Shown piece by piece: positions 28,033-30,654 of a stretch of DNA of 64,000 nucleotides (position 1 is the stretch's first letter; every line of letters starts with the position of its first letter). A program made the translations under genes and the position numbers. Location of the stretch: the NCBI GenBank assembly GCA_963664295.1, contig OY760935.1, forward strand, positions 416,001-480,000. The letters run 5' to 3'. The notes beneath the pieces are model-generated. The model did not search any database and was not told where the DNA came from. It saw only the letters and a list, made by a program, of their open reading frames with translations. The DNA comes from Candidatus Altimarinota bacterium. Its GTDB lineage: Bacteria; Patescibacteriota; Gracilibacteria; CAIRYL01; GCA-016699755.

Positions 28033-29121
28033 CTATAAGAGTTTAATAAACTCATCAAATAAAAACTGGGCATCTTGTGGACCAGGACAGGCTTCAGGAT
28101 GAAATTGCACAGAAAAAATAGGTTTTGTTTTGTGTTTTATGCCCTCAACACTGCCATCGTTTAAATTCTTAAACCAAATTTTAAAATCCTTTGGAATTTT
28201 TTTCTCATCAACAGCAAAGCCATGATTTTGACTTGTCACATAACATTTTTCCGTTTCAATATCCTGCACAGGCTGATTTACACTTCTGTGTCCATAAGGA
28301 AGTTTATATGTATTACCGCCTAATGAAAGCGCTAAAATCTGATTACCAAGGCAAATTCCAAAACATGGAACACCTTTTTCATAAGCCCATTTAATATTTT
28401 TTGCAATTACTGGAGCAACTTTTTTTGGATCACCAGGGCCATTAGCAATAAAAAGTCCATCAAACTCATATTCGCCAGTGCTTGCATCAAAATTCCAAGG
28501 AACATGGATAATTTCTACTCCTCTTTTTAAGAAAGACCTTAAAATATTCCTTTTTATTCCTGTATCAACAACTAAAACTCTTTTTTTAATTGAATTTTTT
28601 GGCTTATAAACCTGCACCTTATCTATCGAAACCTCTGCCACAAGATTGCCCTCTTCTGGATTTTCGATTGTTTTTTTAGGCTCACCATCTTCAATAACAA
28701 TCTGACCAAGGCAAGTGCCATGTTCACGCAAAACCTGAGTTAATTCCCTAGTATCAATGCCAGCTATTGCAGGGACTTTGTTTTCTTTTAGCCAATCTGT
28801 AAGAGTTTTTTCACCGCGAAAATGAGAAAAATCCTTAGCAGGAGTGGAGCAAACAAGCCCTCGCACATGAATATTTTCACTTTCAAAATTTTTAATAATA
28901 CCATGTTCGTCTTTATCAAAAGGTGGAACCCCAACATTACCCACCAATGGAAAAGTAAAACAAAGTATCTGTCCTCTATAACTAGGATCAGTCAAAGAAA
29001 GCTCAAAACCAACCATGCCAGTAGAAAAAACCACTTCACCATCACTTGGTCCTTCATAACCAAAGCTTTCTCCTATAAATTCCTGACCTGTTGTTAATAT
29101 TAAGCGAGCTTTTTTTGGCAT
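28033..29121 (-). CDS. carA: Carbamoyl-phosphate synthase small subunit
   Basis: GEVVFSTGM, LTDPSY.GQIL, GIDTR, NGPGDP, FGICLGNQ, TSQNHGF, VQFHPEA. Confidence 0.97.
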   Translation of the reverse strand: MPKKARLILTTGQEFIGESFGYEGPSDGEVVFSTGMVGFELSLTDPSYRGQILCFTFPLVGNVGVPPFDKDEHGIIKNFESENIHVRGLVCSTPAKDFSHFRGEKTLTDWLKENKVPAIAGIDTRELTQVLREHGTCLGQIVIEDGEPKKTIENPEEGNLVAEVSIDKVQVYKPKNSIKKRVLVVDTGIKRNILRSFLKRGVEIIHVPWNFDASTGEYEFDGLFIANGPGDPKKVAPVIAKNIKWAYEKGVPCFGICLGNQILALSLGGNTYKLPYGHRSVNQPVQDIETEKCYVTSQNHGFAVDEKKIPKDFKIWFKNLNDGSVEGIKHKTKPIFSVQFHPEACPGPQDAQFLFDEFIKLL

Positions 29122-29188
29122 TTTCTTTCTTTAATTCCAACTTATTTTGCCCCAAAAAAACTTCTTAGTCGAGTGAAAAAAGCAAAAA

Positions 29189-30061
29189 TTATGCAAAAAC
29201 ACCAGTGCTCAAATATTTATCACCCCTATCCGGTAAAATAACAAGCACTTTTCCATTTTTAATCTTTTCCGCCACAGTAATAGCACCACCACTACTCAAA
29301 CCAGCAAAAATCCCTTCCACTTGCGCTAATTTTTTTGTATTTGCAAATGCCTCCTCATTTTCAATGAAAACTTTTTCACTAAAATAAGAATCATCAACAA
29401 TTTTTGGCATAAAATCATCATAAGGATTTTGAATACCTTGCACATTAAACCCCTTAGGCGGAATAATAGCCACTATTTTTGTATTTGGAGAATGTTTTTC
29501 AAAATATTTTGCCAAGCCCATAATAGTCCCACCTGTACCCACACCAGCCACAAGATAATCAATCTCTGGCATTTCCGCCAAAATCTCCTCTCCATATTGC
29601 AAATAAGCCTCAACATTATCTTCGTTCTCAAACTGGTTCGCAAACCAATATTCATCTGGGCTATCTGCCACCAATTCTTTTGCCTTGGCAATCGCCCCTG
29701 CTGTACCCAAGTTTTTATCAGTCAAAACAAGTTCAGCCCCAAGGCTACGCAAAATCTGCTTACGTTCTTCACTCATTGCCTCGCTCATAACAATCTTCAC
29801 CTTAAATCCAAGCGAAGTACCAATAGAAGCCAAAGAAATACCCATATTTCCACTTGTTGCTTCAAGAATTGTTTTTTCTTTGGTCAAATCCCCTCTTTCA
29901 ATTGCCCTATTTATCATATTACTACCAGCACGGTCTTTTATGCTCCCACCTGCTGGATTTGCTCCCTCGATTTTTGCATATATTTCTTGATCTGGAAAAA
30001 TTTTCTCCAAACGCACGAGTGGCGTGCTTCCTGTTGCTTTTTGCAATGTTTTTGTATTCAT
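29189..30061 (-). CDS. cysK: Cysteine synthase (PLP-dependent, CysK/CysM family)
   Basis: GSTPLVRL, NPAGGSIKDR, EATSGNMG, NQFEN, GVGTGGT, EGIFAGLSSG, PDRGDKYLS. Confidence 0.93.
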   Translation of the reverse strand: MNTKTLQKATGSTPLVRLEKIFPDQEIYAKIEGANPAGGSIKDRAGSNMINRAIERGDLTKEKTILEATSGNMGISLASIGTSLGFKVKIVMSEAMSEERKQILRSLGAELVLTDKNLGTAGAIAKAKELVADSPDEYWFANQFENEDNVEAYLQYGEEILAEMPEIDYLVAGVGTGGTIMGLAKYFEKHSPNTKIVAIIPPKGFNVQGIQNPYDDFMPKIVDDSYFSEKVFIENEEAFANTKKLAQVEGIFAGLSSGGAITVAEKIKNGKVLVILPDRGDKYLSTGVFA

Positions 30062-30080: not shown

Positions 30081-30110
30081 AAAAAAATACTCTCAGCTTA
30101 TGTGAGAGTA
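30081..30110 (-). terminator. Attenuator terminator upstream of cysK
   Basis: TACTCTCA-CATAAGC-TGAGAGTA then TTTTTTT, 20 nt before the cysK ATG. Confidence 0.85.
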
Positions 30111-30151
30111 GTAGTTAAAATACAGTTTTGGCAAAAACTAAGTCACTACTC

Positions 30152-30199
30152 TCAAACGAGAGCGCAACAACATGCCAAAGCTATTTTTTTGATTTTCAT
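30152..30199 (-). CDS. Cys-rich leader peptide MKIKKIALACCCALV
   Basis: ATG AAA ATC AAA AAA ATA GCT TTG GCA TGT TGT TGC GCT CTC GTT TGA; three consecutive Cys codons upstream of cysteine synthase. Confidence 0.85.
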   Translation of the reverse strand: MKIKKIALACCCALV

Positions 30200-30206
30200 C
30201 GTTTTT

Positions 30207-30235
30207 ATTGTAAATGATTTTTACGAAAAAGGCAA
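30207..30235 (-). promoter_or_regulatory. Sigma70 promoter for the leader/cysK transcript (leaderless start)
   Basis: TTGCCT-17-TACAAT with the leader ATG 7 nt downstream. Confidence 0.7.
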
Positions 30236-30508
30236 ACATTGTTCATCTTTTTCTATTCCTAATAATTGCAATGAATTCTTCTCTGTTGCTCCAATAATTT
30301 CTTCAACTTGTTGTTTTGTTTCCAATGAAAGACTTGGGCAAAACAAAACTCCTTGCTGTCCTGCCAATTCTCCAAGTCGCGCACAAGCGCCTTTCATACC
30401 CAAAGCTCCTAATTCATCACAATATGGCTCATAAACATAACCTTCTCTTATTCCAGTTATACGATCCGAAAAAGGCAATTTTGCTAAGTCAAAATTGTCA
30501 CAAGGCAT
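30221..30508 (-). CDS. Small Cys-containing hypothetical protein
   Basis: ATG ORF of 95 aa with an upstream TTGACA-16-TACAAT promoter; contains ETKQQVEEII motif. Confidence 0.55.
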   Translation of the reverse strand: MPCDNFDLAKLPFSDRITGIREGYVYEPYCDELGALGMKGACARLGELAGQQGVLFCPSLSLETKQQVEEIIGATEKNSLQLLGIEKDEQCLPFS

Positions 30509-30579
30509 AATTATTTAGAAACAGGATTTAAATTGTACGCCATTTAGCTGTGTTGTCAATACAAAGTTCGAGTCCTGTA

Positions 30580-30654
30580 TGGTACCCCCGACAGGAATCG
30601 AACCTGTATCTACAGCTTAGGAGGCCGTCGTTCTATCCATTGAACTACGGGGGC
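30580..30654 (-). tRNA. tRNA-Arg (CCT)
   Basis: GCCCCCGTAGTTCAATGGATAGAACGACGGCCTCCTAAGCTGTAGATACAGGTTCGATTCCTGTCGGGGGTACCA cloverleaf with CCA. Confidence 0.95.

Follow-up and report, generated by a model that had tools for sequence, protein, structure and literature searches.

A short open reading frame (ORF) with three consecutive cysteine codons precedes a gene of the cysteine synthase family on the minus strand of the window, the 64,000-nucleotide stretch of Candidatus Altimarinota bacterium DNA that was analysed, and folding models indicate that it very probably belongs to an attenuator of the ribosome-mediated kind, which would tie transcription of the synthase-family gene to the charging of tRNA-Cys. 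The leader is a real, conserved element that recurs beyond chance. It comprises the following parts and neighbours, in window coordinates:

30235-30230, minus strand: -35-like box TTGCCT, read directly, a predicted promoter part
30212-30207, minus strand: -10-like box TACAAT, separated from the -35-like box by a 17-nt spacer and from the ATG by 7 nt, predicting a leaderless transcript or a 1-nt 5' UTR
30152..30199, minus strand: leader ORF of 15 codons plus TGA, with the ATG at 30199 and the TGA at 30154-30152
30172-30164, minus strand: Cys codons TGT TGT TGC, codons 10-12 of the ORF, the predicted sensor
30158..30168, minus strand: segment 1, the 5' strand of the 1:2 anti-antiterminator (by folding, -11.9 kcal/mol)
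30142..30154, minus strand: segment 2, beginning at the stop codon and pairing with segment 1 or segment 3
30123..30140, minus strand: 7-bp inner hairpin within the antiterminator loop (by folding)
30103..30113, minus strand: segment 3, pairing with segment 2 (antiterminator, -16.1 kcal/mol) or with segment 4
30088..30110, minus strand: predicted intrinsic terminator hairpin 3:4 (-8.4 kcal/mol)
30081..30087, minus strand: T7 tract of the terminator, read directly
29189..30061, minus strand: CysK/CysM-family PLP enzyme of 290 aa, the putatively regulated gene, with its ATG at 30061
28033..29121, minus strand: carA, 67 nt downstream of the synthase gene (TIGR01368 above cut-off)
30221..30508, minus strand: orphan ORF of 95 aa that runs at its end into the leader promoter and has a strong promoter-like site of its own at 30559-30532

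Direct reading of the minus strand bore out the promoter proposed in an earlier sequence-only reading of this DNA (TTGCCT and TACAAT 17 nt apart, with the ATG 7 nt further on), the short ORF with TGT TGT TGC, now placed at codons 10-12 of 15, and the 3:4 terminator with its T7 tract (30110-30088 and 30087-30081). Other details of that reading were revised: the 5-bp core described for hairpin 1:2 is present, but within an 11-pair stem (30168-30142, -11.9 kcal/mol) that takes in Cys codons 11-12; the 2:3 pairing, given as 10 bp, has 11 pairs (30154-30144 with 30113-30103) plus the inner 7-bp hairpin; and the synthase ATG, which does follow shortly after the terminator, lies 19 rather than 20 nt past the T tract. 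The two promoter boxes have 9/12 consensus matches together, and such a match is by itself at chance level (6 found vs 4.2 +/- 2.1 in shuffles); terminators in the region outnumber the chance expectation (5 vs 0.9 +/- 0.9). When alternative folds were computed, a check that the same reading had suggested, the complete leader folded as 1:2 plus 3:4 (-33.7 kcal/mol, z -3.9, with 1/200 shuffles equally good) and the piece 30156-30100 alone folded as 2:3 (-16.1 kcal/mol, with 0/200 shuffles equally good), every pairing in the window leader being intact in these folds.

Recurrence was assessed in 56 loci of the cysteine synthase family, the window's included, which came from genomes of the same class (39/401 matched) and of the phylum (14/401 matched, three of them shared with the class set) and from further searches; collection scans with the enzyme gave 3 loci only. 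A fixed rule, namely a short ORF with adjacent or next-but-one Cys codons followed by a hairpin and a T tract within 250 nt, was passed by 26/56 loci, compared with 4/1080 dinucleotide shuffles and 0/56 reverse complements; Cys-run ORFs, which had been proposed as something to seek upstream of orthologous genes, thus do recur. Triple runs of Cys are found in 18 loci and those of any other residue in at most 3, and two extra leaders (L039 and L070) were seen by eye. Leaders are present in 28/36 loci where the gene has its own upstream region and in 0/18 operon-internal loci, 2 loci being cut by contig ends. The loci are kin rather than independent samples, with L004/L005, L029/L031 and L002/L034/L036 being close; leaders are distributed over several branches of a quick enzyme tree (54 rows; L075 and L040 left out) and also occur in three genomes of other classes, besides L070. 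The window's genome is a single 1.215-Mb contig rated 100% complete with 972 called genes, and 143/972 of these genes have a terminator-like site upstream, among which only the synthase gene also has a short Cys-run ORF. Contigs from three runs of one sample, possibly the window's own source and hence not independent, span the stretch and show the leader without differences.

Leaders with two Cys clusters also stand before cystathionine gamma-synthase/lyase-family genes in L116 and L120, the 2 loci kept of 44 examined (30 returned and 14 picked by eye) from a DNA-pattern search of the 401 class genomes, a noisy search in which 140 genomes matched, the reversed control often matched too and the window's leader was missed. 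On the minus strand of L070 (2453-2800), a Cys leader and terminator are followed by tRNA-Cys(GCA), a synthase-family gene and an AdoHcy hydrolase gene.

Across the 26 leaders, 109 TGY triplets lie in frame compared with 18 and 9 out of frame, and at none of the nine positions before the Cys run is one residue common to more than 6 leaders. Codons rather than a peptide motif are therefore conserved, because the Cys triplets hold the frame while the preceding residues vary. This pattern weighs on the reading of the leader as an arrest peptide, in which the nascent Cys-rich chain would stall the ribosome on a thiol, sulfide, metal or redox cue instead of a lack of Cys-tRNA. Such a peptide would suit the position of the first Cys, at codon 10-12 in 20/26 leaders (a figure that the start-choice rule partly favours), and the extra Cys near the end of 15/26. 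However, an arrest peptide fits poorly with the variable residues before the run, with regulated genes that make or carry cysteine, and with the use of both Cys codons (75 TGT, 34 TGC), as simple tRNA sensing predicts, and we consider it very unlikely. The further Cys codons that follow the first cluster in those 15 leaders also keep the frame (29 in frame vs 7 and 5); in the folding model, a stall at this second cluster is predicted to favour termination, and the cluster may serve as a dwell timer, or its role may be limited to lengthening 1:2 by G-U pairing.

The antiterminator pairing is likewise maintained through sequence change, across families and classes. A leader's own 2:3 duplex averages -12.8 kcal/mol, compared with -7.6 kcal/mol for swapped partners and -2.7 kcal/mol for the region 5' of the run, and it beats shuffles at p<=0.05 in 20/25 leaders (L060 was left out because its terminator call was doubtful). 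Among the 25 possible partners, a leader's own comes first in 10 cases and within the top three in 16. Upstream pairing of <= -10 kcal/mol characterizes 22/26 leaders and 17/104 ordinary gene-end terminators when an equal-sized upstream region is taken. Counted from the first base of the last Cys codon, segment 2 begins at 9-22 nt in 24/25 leaders and at 28 nt in one; given the length of the ribosome footprint, a segment 2 that starts at least 9 nt past the last Cys codon lies just outside a stalled ribosome. A DNA alignment of 23 leaders was out of register and hence unsuitable for pair counts or a covariance model. What the sequences themselves show is an ORF with its Cys run, complementary segments and a T tract, all of them conserved.

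These elements would operate as follows. When Cys-tRNA is plentiful, the ribosome would reach the stop codon and either cover segment 2 or leave and allow 1:2 to form; segments 3 and 4 would then pair and stop transcription near 30081. Under a shortage of Cys-tRNA, a ribosome paused at codons 10-12 would cover segment 1 but leave segment 2 exposed, and the free segment 2 would pair with segment 3, allowing RNA polymerase to read into the synthase-family gene. This is the mechanism proposed from the sequence alone (stalling at the Cys run masks segment 1, 2:3 forms and read-through follows), and it is supported by masked folding together with the conservation of pairing despite changed sequence. 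In this folding, which treats equilibrium only, RNA under an assumed ribosome footprint is kept unpaired; a stricter terminator definition gave a terminator in 26/28 leaders and none in L040 and L049. Segment 3 is predicted to be held by upstream RNA at a median of 0.90 with the ribosome at the Cys stall (A site at the last Cys of the first cluster) and of 0.16 at the stop, the two states differing by >0.3 in 24/26 leaders (L005 and L060 do not switch); masking more RNA trivially lowers pairing, an objection that the swapped-partner and gene-end controls answer only partly. On full-length RNA, the terminator has a median of 0.12 at the Cys stall vs 0.98 at the stop, with a difference of >0.3 in 20/26 leaders; in several full-length transcripts the terminator prevails even with the ribosome at the Cys codons, and therefore timing must matter. 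The window model places the switch between codons 13 and 14, with a shift of one codon when the footprint is changed by 3 nt. Because stalls at codons 5-13 also antiterminate in this model, Cys specificity would rest on codon identity. Ribosome-free RNA favours the terminator in the window (0.92) and prefers the antiterminator in 7/26 leaders, unlike the trp model.

The same architecture could instead control translation, as in the mycobacterial polycysteine leaders, if the RNA hid the downstream ribosome-binding site and the hairpin did not terminate. That is the published mechanism for Ms5788A: the available text of the mycobacterial study (10.1101/834739), which presents uORF attenuation for cysteine as previously undescribed, reports that Ms5788 control is translational through Shine-Dalgarno sequestration, without termination, and that a transcriptional reporter is insensitive to cysteine. 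A weak A-U/G-U hairpin can also cover the downstream start in the window. However, the T tract follows the stem in 26/26 modelled leaders, well before the start codon (19-43 nt from the beginning of the tract in 25/26), the genome hardly uses Shine-Dalgarno sites, and the first product behind the L070 element is a tRNA, which is untranslated, so that translational control appears highly improbable. The mycobacterial leaderless poly-Cys sORFs cited in the sequence-only reading thus differ from the proposed attenuator in their mode of control, which is translational at Ms5788 (10.1101/834739). Like Ms5788A and Rv2334A as described there, the window leader is a short, possibly leaderless ORF of consecutive Cys codons before a cysteine gene, read as sensing Cys-tRNA; unlike them, it has an intrinsic terminator and an antiterminator, lacks a Shine-Dalgarno site and belongs to a genome with a degenerate anti-Shine-Dalgarno sequence, the comparison being one of architecture. 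The cys/cbs leaders of actinobacteria, in the available portion of their description (PMC1262725), likewise have consecutive Cys codons close to the stop codon of a short ORF that precedes cys operons; no conserved terminator hairpins were found there and the authors suggested Rho, whereas terminators are conserved in the present leaders and Rho was found in 1/27 genomes searched.

A search for Rho gave no match in the window's complete genome and a match in only 1/26 leader-bearing genomes, which favours intrinsic termination; nusG is present in the window's genome. Terminators kept clear of stop codons are the pattern of coupled transcription and translation, for which 12 nt serves as the criterion. 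In the window's genome, 7/70 gene-end terminators lie within 12 nt of the stop codon, with a median distance of 29 nt, which by this criterion suggests that the ribosome trails the polymerase; a search for a pause site downstream of 1:2 did not establish one. Shine-Dalgarno-like sites precede only 22/972 genes, and the 3' end of the 16S rRNA (reverse-strand offset about 646720 of the genome) has a degenerate anti-Shine-Dalgarno sequence. The missing Shine-Dalgarno site of the leader is thus uninformative, because so few genes have one and the usual anti-Shine-Dalgarno sequence is absent from the 16S 3' end. In 17/26 leaders the start is preceded at 5-10 nt by a TAnnnT box, and at 5-8 nt in 12/26 leaders vs 199/972 genes, in both cases with a start choice that favoured such boxes. 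The 7-nt spacer is compatible with a transcript beginning at the start codon, and leaderless initiation, a reading drawn solely from this spacer, is plausible. However, it may apply to part of the transcripts only, because a stronger promoter-like site (30559-30532) and the orphan ORF lie just upstream and could deliver the leader on a longer mRNA. We infer for the window leader where transcription starts, that the ORF is translated, that ribosome and polymerase are coupled, and that cysteine elicits a response.

The orphan ORF and its near-consensus promoter (30221-30559) lie directly behind tRNA-Arg(CCT) at 30583-30654; the 95-aa product has no Pfam or NCBIfam match, and among 8 candidate relatives only its own cluster was found. 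This arrangement, with no terminator between the strong promoter and orphan ORF on one side and the leader on the other, could indicate an ordinary terminator of the upstream tRNA-Arg/orphan-ORF transcript, with the Cys ORF as a chance occurrence or decayed relic. Such an origin is scarcely credible, since the upstream genes change between loci while the leader stays, the chance rates are 4/1080 and 1/972, all pairings of the window leader are intact, and no promoter-like site was found in the window between the terminator and the synthase gene.

In the Cys-specific T-box leaders of Firmicutes, uncharged tRNA-Cys brings about read-through of an intrinsic terminator; a T-box binds the tRNA directly and needs a stem I and a T-box motif, without a translated ORF. 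The window leader would resemble them in terminator read-through on uncharged tRNA-Cys and differs in having an ORF and no RF00230 match. Selection between 2:3 and 3:4 without a ribosome, whether by T-box-like tRNA binding, by a riboswitch or by a protein bound to the UGU repeats, has an almost negligible probability: the UGU repeats are the most conserved nucleotides in the out-of-register alignment of 23 leaders and can pair by G-U within 1:2, and a T-box-like element exists elsewhere in the genome, but the triplets stay in frame with a start and a stop, a T-box stem I would not fit into so short a leader, and neither the window leader nor 20 loci gave an Rfam match at gathering score, hits with E up to 1 being at chance level.

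Classical leader-peptide attenuators, which the window leader resembles, include trpL, hisL, leuL, thrL and pheL. Others are leuA in Streptococcus and hisS/hisZ in bacilli, according to the accessible parts of PMC5314783 and PMC2965389. At the level of sequence, every testable feature of a classical attenuator is present in the window leader: a short ORF in which codons for the end product stand in a row, the 1:2, 2:3 and 3:4 pairings, a U-tract terminator and the footprint geometry. In contrast to classical attenuators, the window leader would sense Cys, it resides in a likely Patescibacteria host without Rho or canonical Shine-Dalgarno use, its initiation is probably leaderless or independent of a Shine-Dalgarno site, it matches no Rfam family, and among its relatives many have another Cys cluster beyond segment 2 and 1:2 is not dominant in some. 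The earlier remark that no intrinsic-terminator Cys attenuator has been described in Patescibacteria agrees with our survey, in which no terminator-type Cys attenuator, and for Patescibacteria no attenuator at all, was found in the searchable full-text literature, a body distinct from subscription papers, Russian-language surveys and supplements. None appears in the accessible parts of PMC13613805, PMC13236596, PMC2965389, PMC8079986 and PMC5314783, although prediction tables of the type in PMC2965389 and PMC5314783 could list some, and the 2026 paper PMC13236596 cites, in its accessible part, only translational Cys attenuation.

The downstream gene had been labelled cysK, a label supported at the level of a CysK/CysM-family PLP enzyme, the protein lying below every NCBIfam cut-off: its best match is TIGR01136 (298 bits, cut-off 344). 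Solved cysteine synthases align with it from end to end (E 2e-55), and the PLP lysine and the glycine-rich loop are kept. Named close homologues of the enzyme are mostly from Ca. Gracilibacteria, Peregrinibacteria and other Patescibacteria, with some from Bacteroidales and Krumholzibacteriota; the look-alikes of a neighbouring window protein are also CPR, and the enzyme gene of one genome of the class has an in-frame TGA. Taken together, these affinities place the window's genome probably in the class Gracilibacteria. CysE, MetA and MetX had no match in the window's genome, and SerC has a match below cut-off only. Strong cysE matches were found in 7/26 leader-bearing genomes and in 0 of nine searched from the window's enzyme clade. 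In some genomes, cysE-like, cystathionine-lyase-like, TauE or AdoHcy-hydrolase genes lie behind the leader-bearing synthase. The gap between the synthase gene and carA folded without a clean terminator hairpin, and carA may share a transcript with the synthase gene.

Adjacency of carA and a synthase-family gene was observed both in the window (28033-30061, carA downstream) and in family f18 (carA upstream, judged from the translated sequence), the latter comprising L006, L045, L046, L052, L056, L057, L059 and L061, with enzymes of a clade other than the window's. A small protein is encoded directly before leaderless-type synthases in L041 (2379-2843), L042 (2401-2880), L043 (2373-2834) and L068 (2505-3014), and the L043 copy matches ParB_N. 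This ParB-fold protein recalls SbnI/SerK-type serine kinases, which would presumably supply O-phosphoserine; with one query, it was not found in the window's genome. In L071, a structured, terminator-ended leader without a Cys ORF lies about 300 nt before the enzyme start, ahead of a synthase and cystathionine-lyase pair, and it has no Rfam match at gathering score.

Attenuation itself is a textbook mechanism. Within the searchable papers, however, no leader-peptide attenuator of the terminator type has so far been described for cysteine, and the published Cys leaders act on translation or have no terminators. The element would imply that symbionts with small genomes tune a biosynthetic gene to tRNA charging and that coupling of ribosome and polymerase is kept without Rho or Shine-Dalgarno sites. 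The leader would also provide independent evidence that a divergent enzyme clade, below cut-off and without CysE, is used to make cysteine. A wider reading, put forward tentatively and with considerable doubt, is that the leaders form a class of Cys attenuators, widespread in Patescibacteria and so far unpublished, that acts on several cysteine-supply genes (synthases, cystathionine lyases and even tRNA-Cys), in which the second cluster works as a dwell timer that sharpens the switch by holding the ribosome on segment 2, and that they mark a synthase clade without CysE which uses O-phosphoserine or a host-derived acceptor.

Patescibacteria had been described as regulation-poor in the sequence-only reading, which does not fit this genome, with its additional His leader, TrpR-family gene and T-box-like element. 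A genome-wide scan for a promoter, short ORF and terminator returned three hits: the Cys leader, a His-pair leader before hisG, and an antisense one, which was rejected as lying inside a gene. Two tandem units of short ORF and terminator precede hisG (positions 413559-413870 of the contig, minus strand, about 2 kb before the window start). The nearer unit contains a His pair with a predicted switch right after it in the same folding model, and is likely a His attenuator; the farther unit has just one His codon. At the head of the trp cluster (234340-234704) stands a gene of the Trp repressor family; a palindrome that overlaps its promoter-like site is likely an operator, and about 900 nt of repeated palindromic units of ~170 nt lie upstream of this gene. 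The genome's only RF00230-like hit, at 56.7 bits against a gathering score of 93, is the T-box-like element (498636-498822), which lies before a threonyl-tRNA-synthetase-like gene.
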